Positions 5,605-27,761 of a stretch of DNA of 57,433 nt are shown here, one piece after another (position 1 is the stretch's first letter; the number at the start of each line of letters is the position of its first letter). The stretch is from Clostridia bacterium. Lineage in GTDB: Bacteria > Bacillota > Clostridia > Christensenellales > QALW01. The stretch covers positions 1 through 57,433 of the forward strand of contig JAZSPY010000089.1 in NCBI GenBank assembly GCA_045537705.1, read 5' to 3'. The notes beneath the pieces are model-generated. The model made no database searches, was not told where the DNA came from, and worked only from the letters and a program-made list of their open reading frames with translations. The translations under genes were made by a program, and so were the position numbers.

Positions 5605-7012
5605 AATTTTCAAACATCATATTTTCAACAAACAAATCAGAAAACACTTTATCCTTAGAAAGATCAATATATTTTGCGTTTTCAACCATTTTACTGTAAT
5701 CATCGTTCTTTATAACGCTGTTTATAAGCCCTGATAATGAAGAATTATTTATAGCCTTGATCTTTTCCTTTTTACTGGGCAAAAGCCCTGTAACAATGGC
5801 GTTATCAACGTTTATAAAGGTTGAGAAGCCGCCTGAAATATATATTGTATCAATTTCATCAAAGGAAACGTTTGCTTGGTTCATTAAAGCCATAACCGCT
5901 GAAAAAACTGCGGATTTTGCCAGCTGAAACTGGCGTATATCCTTTTGTGAAAGATATACGTTTTCGGACAAATAAAAATCTTCTTCCATATATCCCGATT
6001 CATCAACAATGCCTTGCTTTATTAAATAGGCAATAGTATCAATAAGCCCTGTGCCGCAAATACCTTTGGGCTCAACTTCGCCAATAGTTTTATATCCGTT
6101 TTTATCAAAGAAACTGATTGCGCCAACAGTTGCACTCATACCGCATTCAATATTGGCACCCTCAAAACAAGGGCCTGCCGCAGCGGCGGTACAAAGCATT
6201 TTATCTTTTGAAAACAAAACTACTTCAGCATTAGTGCCAAGATCAATTAAAAAATTATATTTGTTTTCTTTAGGCATCCCGATAAAACCTAACCCCGAAA
6301 CAATATCTGCACCAACAAAAGCAGAAATATTTTTTAAAGAAGTTACTTTTTCAACCTTTTTAATGCCTAAACTTTGACCTGTTTCAGTTTTCTTTTCAAT
6401 AAAGGTTGGTGTGTATGGGCTTTGCCCCATGGAAGATGGATCAACGTTAAAAAACAAGTGAAGCATGGTGGTATTGCCTGCAACAAACATATCGTTTACT
6501 TTTTCTATTTTAAACTCATCTAAAATATCAGATATCATTTGGTTAACGCAGGAAATTATTGATTGATTAAGCTTTTGCTGTCCGTTTTTCATTGAATACT
6601 CAATTCGCGAAATAACGTCTGCCCCAAATGCCCTTTGGGGATTTGTTCTTGTTATAACCTTTGCAACCGTAAAATCATCCATTGAAACAAGGGCAAGGGC
6701 AAGAGTTGTTGTGCCGATATCAAGGCAAAGGCAGTTGTTTTTGCCCGATTTTCCTGTTTCACTAACCCCCGAAAAAGAAGAAATCTCATTTTTAAGCGTT
6801 TCTTCAACAACGATATCTTCATTTATAATGTATTTACAGGATAATTCCTGTTTACCATTAACAAGCACAGTACATTTTTTGCATAAACCAATGCCGCCGC
6901 AGAGATGTTCTACGGCGGTACTATTTTCTTTAAGCACCTCCATTAAAAGAGTGCCTTTTTCTACTGTTATTAACTTTTCATTTTTAGGAAAAATTATTTT
7001 AACGGTTGGCAT
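5603..7012 (-). CDS. Reductive activator of corrinoid proteins (RACo/ASKHA, DUF4445) with an N-terminal [2Fe-2S] domain
   Basis: CGGIGLCKKC Fe-S motif, DIGTTT, FGADVISRI, DLGTNAE, AAAGPCFEG, GICGTG. Confidence 0.92.
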   Translation of the reverse strand: MPTVKIIFPKNEKLITVEKGTLLMEVLKENSTAVEHLCGGIGLCKKCTVLVNGKQELSCKYIINEDIVVEETLKNEISSFSGVSETGKSGKNNCLCLDIGTTTLALALVSMDDFTVAKVITRTNPQRAFGADVISRIEYSMKNGQQKLNQSIISCVNQMISDILDEFKIEKVNDMFVAGNTTMLHLFFNVDPSSMGQSPYTPTFIEKKTETGQSLGIKKVEKVTSLKNISAFVGADIVSGLGFIGMPKENKYNFLIDLGTNAEVVLFSKDKMLCTAAAAGPCFEGANIECGMSATVGAISFFDKNGYKTIGEVEPKGICGTGLIDTIAYLIKQGIVDESGYMEEDFYLSENVYLSQKDIRQFQLAKSAVFSAVMALMNQANVSFDEIDTIYISGGFSTFINVDNAIVTGLLPSKKEKIKAINNSSLSGLINSVIKNDDYSKMVENAKYIDLSKDKVFSDLFVENMMFEN

Positions 7013-9720: not shown

Positions 9721-11976
9721 TTATTTCTTCTTAGGTTCTCTGATTTTTGAAAGTTTTTTATTAAGGGCTAAAAGTTCTTCCTTAGTAAAATTCATATCCA
9801 TCATTCCGCCCATAAGGGTGAACAATCTTAATACGGTAAAGCCGCCCATCATAGCCATCATTTCAGGTCCAACTTCAAAACCGGCCGCCTTTATTTTTCC
9901 GCCCTTGCCTTTCTTGTTGCCCATAACCTTTTTCATAAGGCCCATAAAGATAAGCTTTCCACGCAAGGTTGAAATAACTGCACTCATTTTTGAATTAAGG
10001 GAAAGGAATCCGGGTTTTTCTTCAATATCAAACCAGTTTAATACTGCGCCCTGTTCCTTTAAGCGATAATCTTCGTTAAAGGTTTCAACCTTTTTGATTA
10101 CGCTCTCATCTTTACATTCACCTGCAACTGCAAGAAGTTTTGTTTCGCCTTTATTTTCAACTTCAAAATAGAAGAAGTGGTCTTCTTTAGTTTTTTTGCC
10201 TAATGACACGCCGTTTGCAAAAAGTTCAACTTCAGGCAAGTTAGAATAAATAGTAACCTTTGTTACTTCTTCTACCCTATCAACATAACGTTTTGAGCAG
10301 ATGTGCACAAAAGGATCATCGGAAAGCCATGCTTTGTAAGCATAGAAAGCATCCTTTTTATATTTGCGATCAATAGTAACAAGGCCTTTATGGTTTTGTC
10401 CGTTTTCACCGCCTTCGCATCTTGCATCAGCGCCAAAATCAAACATGTTCCAAACGTGTGTTGCCCAAAGATATTTACGGGTAAAAAGCTGTTTAATAAG
10501 TTCTTCGTGATAATATGCCTGATATTCTTCAGTATAATCGCCCTGCATTGGTGTTGAAGTATGCCAGTTCAATGCTTCGCAACCATATTCTGAGCAACCG
10601 ATAGGAATGTTTGGATGGGTTTGGTGGAACTTATCAAACCAAGGACCGTTCATACTTGTTTCGCCACCATACCAGCCAAAGTAGTGGTTGTATGAAACAA
10701 CATCGGGAATCTGTAAATACGGATCATCCATTTTGCACATTGAAACTGCTGCAATAGTTGTTAAACGAGTGGGATCCATTTGGTGACACATATCGTTTAA
10801 AATATGATGATTTTCTAATAAATCATTATCGCTTCCGCCAATACCGATTTCATTTGAAAGACCCCAAACAACGATTGATGGATGGTTGTAATTTTGTGTA
10901 ACAAGTTCGGTCATTTGTTGTATGGTGTTTTCTCTACCATCAGGCATATGTTTTGAAATATAGGGGATTTCTGCCCAGATAACAAAACCGTATTCATCGC
11001 AAAGATCATAGAAATACTGATCGTGCTGATAGTGTGCAAGGCGGATAGTTGTTGCGCCTACTTCATAAATAAGTTCAATATCTTCCTTGTGATCTTCTTT
11101 TGAAAGCGCGTTACCCTTTTGCCAGCGATCCTGGTGGCGTGAAACACCCCTTAATGGATATTCTTCGCCGTTTAAGATAAAGCCGTTTTCAGAATCAATC
11201 TTAAAGGTACGGCAACCAAAGCGAGTACAAACGTTATCAATAACGGTTTCGCCTTCCAGCAATTCTGCTTCACAGCAATAAAGATATGGATTTTTTCTGC
11301 CGTGCCAAAGAATAACGTCAGGAATAGTTAATTCTGCTTTTGTTTCTTCTGTTTCAACTGTTGCAATAACCTTTTCTTCTTTATCATAAACAGTGTAACG
11401 GATAATCTGTCCGTCTTTTTTGTTTGTGATAAAGGTTTCAACTTTAATTAAAGCATCTTTATCCTTAATTTCAGGTGTAACCATAATGCCGGGGCCACCA
11501 AAGTAATCAAGATCAAAGTGACTATCGTTTACTGAAATAATATTTACGTCACGATAAAGTCCGCCGTAAAAAGTGAAGTCAGCCATCTGTGGATAAACCC
11601 TGTCGTTTGCTGAGTTATCTACCTTAATAACTAAAAGGTTTTCATCCTTTAAAGCGTCTGTAATATTTACACGCCAGGTAGAATATCCACCATCGTGATG
11701 CTTTAATTCCTGTCCGTTTAAAATAACGTCAGCCGAGGAGTTTGCACCGCGGATTTCAAGATACTGCTGATCAGCCTCAGGCAAATCGCTTTTATTAAAT
11801 TTCTTTACATAATAACAAGTACCGCGATAATAGTCGTTTCCGCCATCCTGACCGTCAATAGCATTCCAGCAATGTGGAAGATCTACTTTTTCGTAGCTAT
11901 CTAAAATTTCATTTGGTACTTCCTGAGCATCCTTTGTAAAAGCCCATTTTTCATTAAAGTTTAAAATATTTCGCAT
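9721..11976 (-). CDS. Glycoside hydrolase family 2 (beta-galactosidase/beta-glucuronidase-like)
   Basis: RGVSRHQD, IRLAHYQ, NHPSIVVWGLSNE (acid/base), SEYG (nucleophile), WNMFDF, NHKGLVT. Confidence 0.92.
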   Translation of the reverse strand: MRNILNFNEKWAFTKDAQEVPNEILDSYEKVDLPHCWNAIDGQDGGNDYYRGTCYYVKKFNKSDLPEADQQYLEIRGANSSADVILNGQELKHHDGGYSTWRVNITDALKDENLLVIKVDNSANDRVYPQMADFTFYGGLYRDVNIISVNDSHFDLDYFGGPGIMVTPEIKDKDALIKVETFITNKKDGQIIRYTVYDKEEKVIATVETEETKAELTIPDVILWHGRKNPYLYCCEAELLEGETVIDNVCTRFGCRTFKIDSENGFILNGEEYPLRGVSRHQDRWQKGNALSKEDHKEDIELIYEVGATTIRLAHYQHDQYFYDLCDEYGFVIWAEIPYISKHMPDGRENTIQQMTELVTQNYNHPSIVVWGLSNEIGIGGSDNDLLENHHILNDMCHQMDPTRLTTIAAVSMCKMDDPYLQIPDVVSYNHYFGWYGGETSMNGPWFDKFHQTHPNIPIGCSEYGCEALNWHTSTPMQGDYTEEYQAYYHEELIKQLFTRKYLWATHVWNMFDFGADARCEGGENGQNHKGLVTIDRKYKKDAFYAYKAWLSDDPFVHICSKRYVDRVEEVTKVTIYSNLPEVELFANGVSLGKKTKEDHFFYFEVENKGETKLLAVAGECKDESVIKKVETFNEDYRLKEQGAVLNWFDIEEKPGFLSLNSKMSAVISTLRGKLIFMGLMKKVMGNKKGKGGKIKAAGFEVGPEMMAMMGGFTVLRLFTLMGGMMDMNFTKEELLALNKKLSKIREPKKK

Positions 11977-25604: not shown

Positions 25605-26291
25605 ATGGGCATTCACGATGGACACAGGGAAAAATTAAGAAGAAATTTTATTGCTGTTGGCCTTGAAGGTAAATCAGACCATCAGATTCTTGAACTTTTA
25701 TTAACTTATGCTCTGCCTCGCATTGATGTTAACCCCCTTGCCCACGAACTTATAGATAAATTCGGTTCCCTTTCAGGTGTTCTTGATGCAGATATTTCCC
25801 AGCTTACTAAAATTAAATACGTTTCTGAAAACGTTGCGGTTTTAATTAAACTGATTCCGCAAATTTCTATGAAATATTATCAAAGCAAGCACGGTGAACG
25901 CATTCGCCTTAACACAGTTGATGCAATTAAAGATTATATGATACCTCAACTTGTTAGCGAAAAATCAGAAGTGTTTTTCGTTTTATGCTTAGATACCCAT
26001 CTTAACCTTATCCGCGCTATAAAGCATTCAGAAGGCTCACCATCAAAAACTGCTATTGATATCCGATCGCTTGCAAACCAGGTGCTTAATACCGGCACTG
26101 ACAGAATTATTCTTGTGCACAACCATTTATCCAATTCTGTTACGCCATCTGCACATGATATTCAAGCAACTAAAAGGATTGCTACAGCTTTTGAACTTAT
26201 TAACGTTACCGTTCTTGATCATATTATAATTTCAGGCGATAAATATTTTAGCTTTTTTGCAAATAAAGATATCCTTGAAAGCGCAAAATAG
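25605..26291 (+). CDS. radC: RadC-like JAB/MPN protein
   Basis: HDGHREKLR, ELLLTYALPR, HNHLS...PSAHD, LDHIII. Confidence 0.9.
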   Translation: MGIHDGHREKLRRNFIAVGLEGKSDHQILELLLTYALPRIDVNPLAHELIDKFGSLSGVLDADISQLTKIKYVSENVAVLIKLIPQISMKYYQSKHGERIRLNTVDAIKDYMIPQLVSEKSEVFFVLCLDTHLNLIRAIKHSEGSPSKTAIDIRSLANQVLNTGTDRIILVHNHLSNSVTPSAHDIQATKRIATAFELINVTVLDHIIISGDKYFSFFANKDILESAK

Positions 26292-26340
26292 CAAACGTTT
26301 TTATATATTTAAAAAATTCTTTTGTTTTTTTAAAAAACGC

Positions 26341-26369
26341 TTGACAGAATGTTTTTTATAAAATATAAT
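26341..26369 (+). promoter_or_regulatory. Consensus sigma-A promoter of the tRNA
   Basis: TTGACA (26341-26346), 17 bp, TATAAT (26364-26369). Confidence 0.9.
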
Positions 26370-26386
26370 TAGCCTTGTTAATAGAT

Positions 26387-26471
26387 GCGAGTGTGCTGGA
26401 ATTGGCAGACAGGCATGACTAAGGATCATGTGTCAACAGACGTAAGGGTTCAAGTCCCTTCATTCGCACCA
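26387..26471 (+). tRNA. tRNA-Leu(AAG)
   Basis: Acceptor GCGAGTG/CATTCGC + ACCA, D-loop TTGGCAGAC, anticodon arm CATGA-CT[AAG]GA-TCATG, long variable arm, T-arm AAGGG-TTCAAGT-CCCTT. Confidence 0.93.
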
Positions 26472-27114
26472 TGCTTTAAAGCCTTGTGATTACTGCTAGT
26501 CGGTGGTTGCAGGGCTTTTCTGTTTTTAAAAATGAAGGGACTTGAAGCCAAAGTGGGCGCGTAGGCGTAAAAAAACAGTTTAGTAAACTGTTTTTAGCCA
26601 AGCGTTGCGAGACGGGTACTGTTGCAAAGCAACGGTCGGCGAGCAAGTAAGGCGCGTAGCGACTGTGTCCCTTCATTCGCACCAGTGCTATATGCCCCTT
26701 GATTGCTGCTTTTCACAGTGGTTGAGGGGCATAACTGTTTTTGGAAAACCTCTTGGGACAAGTCCCTTCATTCGCACCGCGTCAGCAAAAAGTCCGTTCG
26801 CGGTGTTTCCCTTTAACAAGGAAAACTTTTGCTTACTCCCTTTTGCTTCCTTTCTCCCACAAAGGCACGCCTTTGCGGGAACCCTGTTTAATAAGCCTTG
26901 TGATTACTGCTAGTGAAGTGGTTGCAGGGCTTTTCTGTTTTTAAAAATGAAGGGGCTTGAAGCCAAAGTGGGCGCACAGGCGTTAAGAAAACAGTTTAGT
27001 AAACTGTTTTTAGCCAAGCGTTGCGAGACGGGTACTGTTGCAAGGCAACGGTCGGCGAGCAAGTAAGGCGCGTAAGCGACTGTGTCCCTTCATTCGCACC
27101 GCGTCAGCAAAAAG
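26454..27114 (+). repeat. tRNA-linked repeat array (four copies of the tRNA 3' end; about 205 bp direct repeat)
   Basis: GTCCCTTCATTCGCACC at 26454, 26667, 26762 and 27084; 26479-26683 is near-identical to 26893-27100. Confidence 0.9.
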
Positions 27115-27125
27115 ATGAGCATAAA

Positions 27126-27167
27126 AAAGGCAGATAGCTTGACACTATCTGCCTTTCTTGTTTTTTT
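27126..27167. terminator. Bidirectional intrinsic terminator closing the tRNA array
   Basis: AAAGGCAGATAG-CTTGACA-CTATCTGCCTTT followed by a T-rich tail. Confidence 0.75.
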
Positions 27168-27169
27168 AA

Positions 27170-27661
27170 TTATCTTAAGAAGTTAAGCTTCTTGATGATA
27201 GCGGGTTCCTTTGCCTGTCCGTTGCAGATCTGGAAGAAACAAATGATCTTTACAACAAAGAGTGTGATATAAAGAACCGTTGCCACAATAAGAGCAAGCC
27301 CATAAATAATTGTTCCAAGGATAGGAATGATATTTATAACCATACCAACGGCAAGAACAATAGGAACAAGTGTTTCAACAACAACAAACTTCAGCGCCTG
27401 ACGAACATGGAAGGCAGCATACTTTGAGGTGTTGCTACCTAAAAGCGCAAGCAAGATGCCGATCCAGCCCATAAGATAAACAAGCATTGAAATTACTTTG
27501 TTTTCAGAAATGTCTTTTGCATCAAATTCTGCAGTATGATCATAAGGATCAGGCTGGGGTGCATATTGCGTCTGCTGGGCCTGTGCGAACTGTACGCCAC
27601 AATTTGTGCAAAAAGCAGCATCATCATTAAGTTGAGTGTTACAATTAGGACAATATTTCAT
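27170..27661 (-). CDS. Zinc-ribbon + DUF4870-like membrane protein
   Basis: MKYCPNC...FCTNCG zinc ribbon, ENKVISMLVYL, FHVRQAL and three TMs. Confidence 0.8.
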   Translation of the reverse strand: MKYCPNCNTQLNDDAAFCTNCGVQFAQAQQTQYAPQPDPYDHTAEFDAKDISENKVISMLVYLMGWIGILLALLGSNTSKYAAFHVRQALKFVVVETLVPIVLAVGMVINIIPILGTIIYGLALIVATVLYITLFVVKIICFFQICNGQAKEPAIIKKLNFLR

Positions 27662-27761
27662 TTTAAGACCCTCTCTTTCGTTTTTCGCCAAAAAACAACT
27701 TTTTTCAGCTTATTCTGTAAAGATTCTAACATATTGGTCTTTGTTTGTCAATACTGCTGTT

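Follow-up and report, generated by a model that had tools for sequence, protein, structure and literature searches.

Transfer RNA genes are classic landing sites of mobile DNA, and to our knowledge the elements that use them are kilobase-sized and carry their own integrase. Integron attC sites consist of an inverse core site, a variable structure and a core site, with the consensus GTTRRRY / RYYYAAC. The attP(+) site of CTX phage has two inverted target copies about 100 nt apart that fold into a hairpin mimicking the chromosomal site, which the host XerCD then integrates (an IMEX). In IS200/IS605 ends, PATEs and IS110 bridge RNA a stretch within the element base-pairs with its target or flank, activity is confined to one strand, and there are small non-autonomous members. 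The Dehalococcoides ssrA islands lie in tandem arrays, are kilobases long, and carry cargo and an integration module with the serine recombinase DsiB (PMC3146451).

The locus described here lies 3' of a tRNA-Leu(AAG) gene in a window of 57,433 bases (the whole stretch of Clostridia DNA that was analysed), and its features are collected in Table 1. A gene-less module of about 160 bases, R1, occurs there twice; its possession of both an inverted and a direct copy of the tRNA end suggests that it is an undescribed small insertion cassette that is matched to its target by base pairing. A full-text literature search, judged by titles and abstract openings, found no description of such tRNA-end cassettes.

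Table 1. Features of the tRNA-Leu(AAG) locus, in window coordinates
Feature	Position	Strand	Remarks
tRNA gene promoter, TTGACA-17-TATAAT	26341-26369	+	12/12 consensus matches
tRNA-Leu (anticodon AAG), host/target gene	26387-26471	+	ARAGORN and Rfam
Terminator hairpin, cassette 1	26478-26529	+	18 pairs, G-T rich, with T run
R1 module copy 1 (whole covariance-model match)	26527-26686	+	170.7 bits
Antisense segment copy 1	26531-26549	+	reverse complement of tRNA positions 51-69, 18/19 bases
Direct copy 1 of tRNA end (T3)	26667-26683	+	P1 3' strand; cassette 1/2 boundary
Cassette 2, short, core-less	26684-26761	+	terminator hairpin 26691-26733, then ...GGGACAA
Direct copy 2 of tRNA end	26762-26778	+	cassette 2/3 boundary
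X module, non-coding, start of cassette 3	26779-26892	+	
Terminator hairpin, cassette 3	26893-26944	+	same type as cassette-1 hairpin
R1 module copy 2	26942-27103	+	167.1 bits; core 95% identical to copy 1
Antisense segment copy 2	26946-26964	+	A>G at 26955 keeps G-T/G-U pair
Direct copy 3 of tRNA end	27084-27100	+	distal array boundary
Terminator, distal array end	27126-27166	+	precedes convergent gene 27170-27691

The repeated T3 segment is the last 17-18 bases of the tRNA gene (26454-26470/71) and comprises T-loop positions 59-60, the T-stem 3' strand, the acceptor 3' strand, the discriminator and CC. Its 17-nt form is present in four copies, at 26454, 26667, 26762 and 27084, so three cassettes are stacked here, where the initial annotation had counted two. 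The GGGACAA that closes cassette 2 directly adjoins the next T3 copy, the two together making a 5-bp palindrome, and a truncated X module of 14 bases (27101-27114) directly follows direct copy 3. The R1 cassettes contain zero genes, and each boundary in their stacked arrays is an exact 17-base repeat of the tRNA end, beginning at T-loop position 59. Of 21 genomes in the genus, 20 have the tRNA-Leu(AAG) gene at 98-100% identity, and in 20 genus genomes all nine copies of its end found downstream begin at G59, whatever the cassette type; (G)GAC, which is complementary to GTC(C), stands 0-3 nt in front of each. The 3' copies are perfect over positions 59-73 in 47 of 69 cases, with mismatches mostly at the left edge, and the tRNA-end repeats are sometimes longer (52 or 95 nt). 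The left ends of the cassettes are unrelated terminators and are not conserved; the hairpin type of cassette 1 also lies 3' of the tRNA in many genus relatives.

That the cassette carries an antisense copy of the tRNA end, as first annotated, was confirmed: AATGAAGGGACTTGAA (26531-26546) is the exact reverse complement of tRNA bases 26449-26464, and the second copy (26946-26961) differs by one A>G. In a repeat search the complementarity between tRNA and antisense segment reaches 19 nt at 95% (26446-26464 with 26531-26549). The 16-mer has only three matches in the window at one mismatch or fewer (the tRNA minus strand and the two cassettes) and no match at all in any of 100 dinucleotide-preserving shuffles, so it is not a chance occurrence. 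The accompanying argument that simple att duplication does not give an inverted copy stands.

The initial annotation had proposed that homologues at other tRNAs be compared, and there the antisense segment follows the host tRNA and the core stays constant, behind at least 17 other tRNA species and tmRNA, with different tRNAs used in different genomes. This was measured position by position on 24 distinct tRNA segments with equal weights and 1000 shuffles, in place of a crude ranking of a segment's own tRNA against the others. Complementarity at positions 57, 59, 63, 64, 65 and 66 was 1.00, 1.00, 0.96, 0.89, 0.81 and 0.65, respectively (shuffled values 0.77, 0.64, 0.82, 0.44, 0.66 and 0.44), and the observed values were reached in 0, 0, 0, 0, 2 and 4 of the 1000 shuffles; at positions 67-69 complementarity was not above that of the shuffles in the same test. 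The crude rankings, which made the host's own tRNA the best partner in 31 of 61 cases (5 ties) and 13 of 49 cases (12 ties), carry little weight, since T arms resemble one another and deletions of 1-2 nt occur in some antisense segments. T-loop position 57 is complementary in 51 of 56 distinct cassettes, and forms G-T in one more; it lies outside most cassettes' own 3' copy, so self-pairing with the cassette end does not explain the whole match. Of the proposal that the target is specified by pairing, the co-variation with the tRNA holds good; the fading match at 67-69 and the two rankings speak against a guiding role.

The suggested pairing of the antisense segment with the cassette's own terminal copy, closing a multibranch fold, was also borne out. 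Bases 26531-26541, the 5' strand of the closing helix P1, pair over 11 nt with 26667-26677, within the tRNA-end copy that belongs to the cassette. The predicted fold of the 161 nt from 26525 to 26685 has an energy of -55.9 kcal/mol (z = -3.46), which none of 200 shuffles matched; the antisense segment and the 3' copy form its closing helix, and the AAAAACAGTTTA/TAAACTGTTTTT and GTTGC/GCAAC hairpins lie within it. Besides P1, R1 copy 1 contains a small hairpin (26547-26558), a P2 stem (26558-26566 with 26597-26604) that encloses an A/T-rich hairpin (26572-26594), a bulged rod (26606-26645) with conserved GGGTAC (26614-26619) and CGGTC (26633-26637), and a variable hairpin (26651-26663). This four-branch structure shows strong covariation: in an alignment that had been fitted to the model 94.3% of cells are paired, compared with 78.4% in shuffles, and 35 of 43 pairs have changes on both sides (values reached by 0 of 500 shuffles; slid controls gave 33-44%), and RNAalifold on an independent MAFFT alignment of seven copies found compensatory changes in 20 of 43 pairs. 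G-T pairs far exceed A-C pairs (117 to 17 in alignment A2 and 265 to 21 in A3), so the tRNA-sense single strand is the object of selection. The 52 distinct antisense segments depart from perfect complementarity 72 times; 47 of these departures retain a G-T/G-U pair and two give A-C, under a scoring that favoured wobble at alignment edges.

The fold contains tandem G-A pairs and a strictly kept GGU bulge, its middle holds the A/T-rich hairpin followed by T5, and its bulged-rod motif is circularly permuted in a variant behind tRNA-Ser(GCT). Docking of the GGU bulge on an RCCA end, in the style of RNase P or a T-box, was considered and set aside for want of covariation: nearly every copy has GGT in the bulge irrespective of the discriminator base, and two copies combine GGC with A73. 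A group II intron domain, a C/D-box-like guide, a K-turn and a single-strand origin were likewise dropped, their defining motifs being absent or not conserved. At gathering scores Rfam finds only tRNA, tmRNA and an unrelated pemK motif in 12 loci, and in the window it gives no match over R1 with an E-value below 0.17.

The resemblance of R1 to integron attC sites lies in inverted and direct copies of a crossover sequence that flank a variable structured segment, in a function that would reside in one folded single strand, and in head-to-tail stacking of cassettes with a repeated core at each boundary. The imperfect inverted repeats that bound the cassettes do fold in one strand (P1 and the strand-specific covariation), and at every cassette boundary of tRNA-Leu(AAG) the repeat faces its complement at a distance of 0-3 nt, or of about 125 nt in R1, so that the loop between the arms varies, much like the variable terminal structure of attC, from 0-3 nt in core-less cassettes to about 125 nt in R1. 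The GTTRRRY/RYYYAAC core is not found, however; the R1 arms are the tRNA's own sequence and differ between tRNAs, no integron integrase or attI lies beside the array, which starts at a tRNA gene instead, the cassettes are without genes, and their loop is a conserved four-branch core rather than free-form. The folded strand of R1 is the tRNA-sense strand, which also is unlike attC. With attP(+) sites of the CTX type R1 shares two inverted target copies that would form a site-mimicking hairpin, the lack of a recombinase of its own and the tandem arrays, but it has no dif-like XerC/XerD site and is not integrated at dif, its site being the tRNA T arm and 3' end, and unlike CTX phage it is a gene-less element of about 200 nt.

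Among elements that enter RNA genes, the Dehalococcoides ssrA islands come close in that the last 17-20 bases of the gene are directly repeated, the insertion point falls within the T loop, arrays extend downstream and each repeat has a short conserved motif beside it (PMC3146451). The R1 cassettes differ from them in being gene-less and folded and in having an inverted target copy; the word "inverted" does not occur in the main text of that paper. As in tRNA islands and CIMEs generally, R1 cassettes have a direct tRNA 3'-end repeat at the far boundary and accrete in tandem, but no autonomous relative with the same ends and a recombinase gene was found among 116 copies, part of which have long flanks. 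An internal pairing segment, one active strand and a small gene-less form are common to R1 and to IS200/IS605, PATEs and IS110 bridge RNA. The guide-like segment of R1 is 12-19 nt, not 4-5 nt as in those systems, and a 17-nt repeat flanks the cassette; the Y1 (HUH) transposase expected of an IS200/IS605-derived PATE is missing from half of the carriers, and the DEDD transposase that an IS110 element would encode beside its RNA scores above cut-off in just 1 of 21 genus genomes. Nor do the cassettes have the terminal inverted repeats of a parent IS and the fixed short target duplication of a MITE: the "inverted repeat" of R1 is target sequence that changes with the tRNA, the left ends are unrelated terminators and the repeats range from 17 to 95 nt.

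A total of 116 R1 copies from this genome, its genus relatives and gut metagenomes were examined. This genome has seven full copies behind five tRNA/tmRNA genes and divergent or truncated copies behind two more, making seven of its 43 tRNA/tmRNA genes, and of 61 related genomes 17 contain R1, among them 11 of the 20 that belong to the genus. The R1 model gave 18 matches in 80 GTDB loci and 84 in 80 metagenome loci; the first GTDB pattern was too loose and only 14 of the 80 loci hold true R1, their labels being Clostridia, Oscillospiraceae, Ruminococcaceae, Acutalibacteraceae or Eubacterium, with one bin labelled Bacteroides (label as recorded). A same-strand tRNA lies upstream of 76 of the 116 copies, within 60 nt for 59, at 61-500 nt for 15 (in arrays) and further away for two. 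Every copy has a terminator after it, and in the window an intrinsic terminator of 16-18 pairs stands directly upstream. A blastn search at "distant" settings with the 215-nt cassette matched nothing in 50,697 phage or 72,556 plasmid records, a pattern scan of IMG/VR gave one hit that was judged spurious because it falls in coding sequence and the R1 model does not recognise it, and 23 CRISPR spacer units from the two arrays near cas1 in R1-free relatives gave a single 16-nt chance match and none to R1.

The partner enzyme was sought both in this genome and by phyletic pattern. This genome (92% complete) has one tyrosine recombinase and no detected serine recombinase, Y1, IS110 transposase, Cas1 or reverse transcriptase; the Y2 transposase search carries no weight, as it had no match here and none in any control genome either. 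That sole tyrosine recombinase, P0001, lies on another contig, scores 91.5 bits against the integron-integrase model (cut-off 265), and at E <= 1e-10 finds homologues in no more than 2 of 20 genus genomes, an R1 carrier (27% identity, with an in-frame stop) and a non-carrier. Over 21 genomes the patterns of tyrosine recombinase, P0001, Y1, Y2, IS110, Cas1, reverse transcriptase and resolvase were compared, and no tested recombinase, transposase or reverse transcriptase tracks R1; tyrosine recombinases occur in all 21 and are not R1-specific. The Y1 transposase domain PF01797 is absent from 6 of the 12 R1 carriers of the genus (this genome, G005, G007, G010, G013 and G016, 75-96% complete), the IS110 domain PF01548 is above cut-off in 1 of 21 genomes and missing from 11 of the 12 carriers, and Cas1 and reverse transcriptase occur in 0 and 3 of the 12, respectively. 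None of the 116 copies, part of them with long flanks, could be placed inside a recombinase-encoding element; 17 have at least 1 kb of tRNA-free upstream sequence, and five of these loci were read closely. Neighbouring islands were considered as parents and rejected: those at L276 (tyrosine integrase, CRESS-type Rep and S24 repressor) and L291 (integrase) have junctions of their own, as do the serine recombinase islands at L263 and L338, and all four are separate insertions. The island junctions near R1 consist of a 45-nt repeat from the anticodon loop, or of a break in the terminator or the T loop.

The reading we prefer, with a confidence somewhat short of even, is that R1 is a folded insertion cassette of the attC/CTX kind that is served in trans. 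R1 would be the cis-acting core of gene-less cassettes of about 200 bp that accrete 3' of tRNA and tmRNA genes in gut Clostridia, each cassette running from a tRNA-end copy through a terminator and the antisense segment to the conserved core, after which the next tRNA-end copy follows. The tRNA-end copy, from T-loop position 59 to the 3' end, keeps the tRNA intact. On the tRNA-sense single strand the antisense segment would pair with the next tRNA-end copy and close the four-branch fold, and this closing helix would reproduce the target-site duplex. A recombinase supplied in trans could then join the folded site to the T loop of the tRNA gene at the 58|59 boundary, with replication afterwards fixing the insertion; new cassettes would enter beside the tRNA, and older ones would be pushed outward and decay by deletion. 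The architecture, the exact boundaries, the match of the antisense segment to its target, the strand-specific selection on structure, the arrays and the presence/absence polymorphism are observed; from these we infer a folded strand of DNA, its service as a recombination site and the existence of the trans-acting enzyme. A broader class of protein-less programmable insertion modules, in which a folded nucleic acid with antisense and sense copies of the T arm and 3' end directs a host or passing enzyme and is retargeted by changing those copies, with no link to a known guide-using enzyme family, seems doubtful.

Several observations sit awkwardly with this preferred attC/CTX-like reading, among them the failure to find a partner enzyme or a recombinase-encoding element around any copy, the poor discrimination of the antisense match in the crude rankings and the clustering of cores by tRNA. 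Conservative recombination at 58|59 would leave the target tRNA with a 3' end taken from the element, so that the element would have to change correspondingly before it could use another tRNA. Genome G007 has cassettes that are 93% alike at tRNA-Leu(CAA) and tRNA-Leu(AAG), both with local 3' copies and with T-loop complements that differ at the single base separating the two tRNAs, and this pair, its 3' copies being fully local, fits such recombination less easily. It is what might be expected if the antisense segment were a true guide, R1 as RNA or single-stranded DNA programming a trans-acting enzyme to tRNA genes by base pairing, with the repeated tRNA end as a target duplication. The tracking of position 57, which is missing from the cassette's own 3' copy, and the constancy of the core over so many tRNA species agree with such a guide, which we nevertheless consider quite improbable: the candidate enzymes (Y1, IS110, Cas1, reverse transcriptase) are missing from half or more of the carriers, the terminators at the left ends are not conserved as transposon ends would be, the fading at 67-69 leaves poor discrimination between similar T arms, and a fixed staggered cut would not give repeats of up to 52 or 95 nt. 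Another difficulty is the wobble content of the fold: G-T pairs account for 7-9% of cells, and 27 of 34 sequences retain one particular U-G pair; both count against a DNA fold and are more typical of RNA than of DNA hairpins.

R1 could accordingly be a functional structured RNA, made by read-through from the strong tRNA promoter, whose 5' segment would pair with the pre-tRNA T arm or with its own tRNA-like 3' end. It would influence how the tRNA matures, how stable it is, or an enzyme directed at tRNA, the arrays then arising by duplications and deletions between repeated tRNA ends. The wobble pairs, the restriction of the structure to the tRNA-sense strand, the G-A pairs and GGU bulge, a rod permuted as RNA motifs can be, the terminator after every copy, the match to position 57 of the tRNA itself and the failure of any mobility enzyme to track R1 all point that way. 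We regard this as unlikely, though, as the only strong promoter-like site in 26250-27250 is that of the tRNA, with none before either R1 copy, and the 16-18 pair terminator stands directly upstream; the A/T-rich hairpin with T5 interrupts the module, the distribution is patchy (11 of 20 genomes of one genus, at tRNAs that differ between genomes), and the exact G59 boundary is common to core-less cassettes. The missing promoter and the terminator between tRNA and module likewise tell against the switch on pre-tRNA folding that had been suggested in the initial annotation. Finally, direct tRNA-end repeats and tandem accretion are classic for islands and prophages that enter tRNA genes, and integrase- and serine-recombinase-bearing islands use the same tRNA genes here, so R1 might be a scar, the leftover attachment-site arm of such an element without present function. 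This is very improbable in view of the compensatory changes, the excess of G-T over A-C and the wobble bias of the antisense segments, which indicate continuing selection on a single-stranded fold; moreover, no copy lies inside a recombinase-encoding island, the neighbouring islands have other junctions, and phage and plasmid records hold no similar DNA.

What sets R1 apart is a gene-less module of about 160 nt that is sequence-matched to some 20 different tRNA targets, is under structural selection in one strand and forms arrays. If the fold is a recombination site, the attC/CTX principle would extend to tRNA genes and to Gram-positive gut bacteria and would point to a further trans-acting enzyme; a guide function of the antisense segment would make the choice of target programmable, and if R1 is an RNA, it would represent a new tRNA-linked class. 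Under every reading the cassettes explain a large share of the variable DNA without annotation that follows tRNA genes here, and they act as dispersed repeats that rearrange chromosomes.

The cassettes show presence/absence polymorphism. Relatives hold different cassette sets behind tRNA-Leu(AAG), and a public contig (run X17) joins 26453 to 26667, so that the 213-nt cassette-1 unit is precisely absent; this single absence could also have arisen by slippage or recombination between the 17-18-nt repeats. R1 cores at the same tRNA differ by 4-20%, and cores group by tRNA, identity across targets reaching at most 84% in that comparison, so retargeting is rare and the distribution may be largely due to vertical inheritance plus loss. 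The X module is found behind tRNA-Leu(AAG) in three other genomes of the genus (loci L068, L071 and L074), and the flank at the distal end of the array also follows the single cassette of the relative G010 (L066). Of four runs compared with the window, all as contigs, which carry no weight either way for transcription, the two on record as RNA (X18 and X19) have contigs that cover the tRNA. We note that short pieces near 26980-27018 are present in contigs of X19 and of X17 (probably DNA), the latter also covering 26667-26718.

The only tRNA gene in the window is that for tRNA-Leu with anticodon AAG, an anticodon (A34) that is unusual among bacterial tRNAs, tRNA-Arg(ACG) apart. As the initial annotation had described, a 16-mer behind this gene is the exact reverse complement of part of its 3' end and recurs once with a single A>G change, and the 161-nt stretch that contains the first copy folds in the manner proposed there (-55.9 kcal/mol, z -3.46). 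At no more than one mismatch the 16-mer has three matches in the window, the tRNA and the two antisense copies; no match arose in 100 shuffles. Complementarity to the tRNA extends to 19 nt (18 of 19), and the first 11 antisense bases also pair with the beginning of a downstream copy of the tRNA end. The array does contain antisense-bearing cassettes as claimed, but there are three stacked cassettes and not two, delimited by four copies of the 17-nt tRNA end: cassette 1 has a terminator, antisense segment and core, cassette 2 is short and core-less, and cassette 3 has an "X" module followed by a terminator, antisense segment and core. The terminators are unusually long hairpins (16–18 pairs, many of them G-T) with a common inner sequence, and the same type lies behind tRNA-Leu(AAG) in many relatives regardless of which cassette comes next. 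The X module represents a second family of non-coding cassettes, with hairpins of its own, and is also found behind tRNA-Leu(AAG) in three other genus genomes. The tRNA-Leu(AAG) gene itself is 98–100% identical in 20 of the 21 genus genomes.

Coordinates of features in the window, on other contigs of the same genome (C) and at other loci examined (L)
Location	Feature	Remark
26387-26471	tRNA-Leu(AAG)	16-mer target at 26449-26464
26454, 26667, 26762, 27084	17-nt tRNA end	
26478-26518, 26691-26733, 26893-26932	Terminators	one behind each tRNA-end copy
26531-26546	Antisense 16-mer	first 11 bases pair with 26667-26677
26779-26892	X module	
26946-26961	Second antisense copy	
27101-27114	First 14 bases of another X module	rest gone
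C66:518-1351	Tyrosine recombinase	277 aa, Xer-like
C78:775-1400	Two divergent cassettes, tRNA-Ser(GCT)	rod CGGTC ... GGGCAC permuted relative to R1; hairpin closes the other side
C78:19100-19791, L055:290-900, L338:6300-6500	Runs of short "GATGATA/GTGATGC"-type hairpin repeats	behind tRNA-Gln(CTG) and tRNA-Ser genes
L260 (reverse strand) 9860-10060	Truncated pseudo-tRNA fused to R1	degenerate tRNA-Arg fragment; 76-nt deletion
L274 (reverse strand) 6080-6700	Hybrid R1	metagenome contig
L276:680-4590	3.9-kb integrative element in tRNA-Arg(ACG)	tyrosine integrase, CRESS-type Rep (Viral_Rep + helicase), S24 repressor
L338:5780-5830, L055:1437-1470	Junction GGGGGTTCG..TTT.TGC.ACCCTTCCA	tRNA-Ser T arm broken in T loop

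The folded module with antisense segment, core and 3' copy of the tRNA end (R1), no copy of which contains a gene, lies behind four further genes of this genome (1.56 Mb, 145 contigs): tmRNA (a copy), tRNA-Pro(CGG) (two full and one truncated), tRNA-Ser(CGA) (a copy) and tRNA-Glu(CTC) (one full and one truncated). At each of these the 5' segment complements the local T arm and the 3' end copies the local gene end, so the check suggested in the initial annotation, whether in homologues behind different tRNAs the antisense segment varies with the host tRNA, has a positive outcome. A scan of all 43 tRNA and tmRNA genes of the genome added one truncated copy behind tRNA-Ser(GGA) and two divergent copies behind tRNA-Ser(GCT), in which the bulged rod is like that of R1 and circularly permuted. 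A covariance model built on seven copies recovered seven full copies in this genome and found R1 in 17 of 61 relatives (11 of 20 within the genus); it gave 18 matches in 80 GTDB loci, where one bin bore the label Bacteroides and the others were of Clostridia type, and 84 in 80 gut and rumen metagenome loci. A tRNA or tmRNA gene lies upstream on the same strand in 76 of the 116 copies examined, within 60 nt in 59 cases, at 61–500 nt in 15 (these are later array units) and beyond that in two; 23 of the other 40 had less than 1 kb of sequence to look at. The hosts of the examined copies include 16 tRNA species and tmRNA, with further species in the GTDB set.

R1 folds as a single strand, and the fold is conserved. 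In the structure predicted by RNAalifold from a MAFFT alignment of seven copies, the antisense segment pairs with the 3' copy to form a closing helix (P1). Inside this helix a stem that has an internal loop surrounds an A/T-rich hairpin; there is also a rod, whose conserved strands GGGTAC and CGGTC are accompanied by tandem G-A pairs and a GGU bulge, and one variable hairpin. Compensatory changes occur at 20 of the 43 pairs. When 39 sequences were aligned by fitting to the covariance model, 94.3% of cells were paired, compared with 78.4% in shuffles and 33–44% in slid controls, and both sides change in 35 of the 43 pairs, values that none of 500 shuffles reached. G-T pairs exceed A-C pairs in each of two alignments (117 to 17 and 265 to 21), which identifies the tRNA-sense strand as the one that folds. 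No Rfam family matches R1.

Crude rankings gave the cassette's own tRNA as best partner in 31 of 61 cassettes by identity score and in 13 of 49 by paired positions, weak results because T arms are alike and some antisense segments have small deletions. The match is clear at variable T-loop and T-stem positions when positions are taken singly (24 distinct tRNA segments, equally weighted, 1000 shuffles). The complementary fraction was 1.00 against 0.77 in shuffles at position 57, 1.00 against 0.64 at 59, 0.96 against 0.82 at 63 and 0.89 against 0.44 at 64, with no shuffle reaching the observed value, and 0.81 against 0.66 at 65 and 0.65 against 0.44 at 66, where two and four shuffles did so. At positions 67–69 complementarity was not above shuffles; the proposed covariation thus applies to 57, 59 and 63–66, and across the family the antisense segment accordingly spans the T loop plus the T-stem 3' strand. 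With its extension to position 69, the copy in the window ranks among the longest. Position 57 is outside the 3' copy that most cassettes carry, yet 51 of 56 distinct cassettes match it, and the segment therefore follows the tRNA itself and not just its cis partner. Among 52 distinct antisense segments there are 72 departures from perfect complementarity, 47 of them G-T/G-U and two A-C, a ratio somewhat inflated because scoring favoured wobble at alignment edges.

At tRNA-Leu(AAG) the 20 genus genomes differ in which small non-coding cassettes they carry; the types are R1, X, Y, Z and B. Each of the nine downstream copies of this tRNA end in the genus begins exactly at T-loop G59, and (G)GAC, the complement of the repeat's first bases, stands 0–3 nt before it, so every cassette end has a repeat/complement hairpin, the loop of which in R1 is the 125-nt core. 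Copies of the tRNA end on the 3' side are conserved, 47 of 69 being perfect over positions 59–73, in contrast to cores at one tRNA, which differ by 4–20%. In one public contig position 26453 is followed directly by 26667, and the 213-nt cassette 1 is thus exactly absent from it. In one genus genome (G007) the cassettes at tRNA-Leu(CAA) and tRNA-Leu(AAG) are 93% alike, each with a fully local 3' copy, and their T-loop complements differ at the single base that distinguishes the two tRNAs. The last array unit is often shortened on its 3' side, the pattern expected from deletions that occur at random while an essential tRNA gene anchors the other end. At L274 a tRNA-Ser(GGA) locus runs through a hybrid R1 into sequence that flanks tRNA-Arg(ACG); the 5' part of the hybrid is of the Ser(GGA) type, and its 3' part, like the repeat, is of the Arg(ACG) type. 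This arrangement indicates that R1 copies recombine with each other and that such recombination has rearranged the chromosome.

Among the enzyme families checked across the genus genomes, no mover of R1 cassettes was identified. One tyrosine recombinase was found in the window's own genome (92% complete), on another contig; about 20 nt separate the end of its gene from the 3' end of a tRNA-Val on the border of a tRNA cluster, the placement expected of an island integrase. Homologues (E <= 1e-10) occur in only two of the 20 genus genomes, a non-carrier of R1 and a carrier whose homologue is 27% identical and has an in-frame stop. Tyrosine recombinases as a whole are present in 21 of 21 genomes and are not R1-specific. 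No resolvase-type enzyme was found in the own genome, and four other carriers have one; Y1 transposase was not found in six of the 12 carriers, and IS110 transposase passed the cut-off in just one of the 21 genomes. Reverse transcriptase is found in three of 12 carriers and two of nine non-carriers, and Cas1 in none of 12 carriers and four of nine non-carriers (G002, G003, G009 and G017), although these numbers are small and the genomes related.

The exact DNA boundary common to several cassette types, the repeat/complement hairpin at every boundary, and the lack of a promoter before R1, which has a terminator upstream, favour R1 as a site that acts in cis in DNA turnover over R1 as an RNA gene of the usual kind. 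That selection falls on one strand speaks for a single-stranded form, and together these features give a model in which R1 is a folded insertion site served in trans, like integron attC sites or the CTX attP(+) hairpin: the folded tRNA-sense strand would present the target site in duplex form, a trans-acting enzyme would exchange a strand at 58|59, and replication would then fix the insertion. We hold this model at somewhat below even confidence because the enzyme is missing among the families searched, the high G-T/G-U share and a conserved U-G pair look more RNA-like, retargeting is difficult under conservative exchange, and the G007 pair with its local 3' copies better fits target duplication. 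The same wobble-rich pairing and U-G pair would suit an RNA function, which is nevertheless unlikely in view of the missing promoter, the upstream terminator and the shared boundary. That the antisense segment is a true guide is distinctly improbable, and that R1 copies are plain scars is slightly more so.

Of known systems, R1 would work most like attC sites or CTX attP(+), and it shares its location with tRNA and tmRNA islands, but it misses defining features of each. Passages of the report on Dehalococcoides ssrA islands describe a 20-bp repeat, T-loop insertion and tandem arrays, and do not mention an inverted copy (PMC3146451). A full-text literature search, judged by titles and the starts of abstracts, found nothing resembling R1 cassettes.

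Five loci where R1 sits kilobases from any tRNA were read, and in each a separate island with its own junction had been inserted between the tRNA and R1. Copies of a 45-nt repeat, beginning in the anticodon loop, flank the L276 element, a remnant of whose left end appears again beyond the R1 cassette; the integrase island at a second locus has a 45-nt repeat of this kind, and at a third the insertion of a serine-recombinase element has interrupted the terminator that precedes R1. The L260 deletion joins the T-stem GGG to the GGG in the antisense segment, with the result that the R1 core stands where the T loop would be; L268, L273 and L277 have the same module 5' and 3' ends. At L338 the end of a serine-recombinase cluster is a T-loop junction, directly behind three such genes and conserved at L055, which suggests that T-loop-directed serine recombinases may exist in the genus. 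The runs of short hairpin repeats are followed in two of three places by a small gene whose putative product, judged by eye, is a four-helix bundle.
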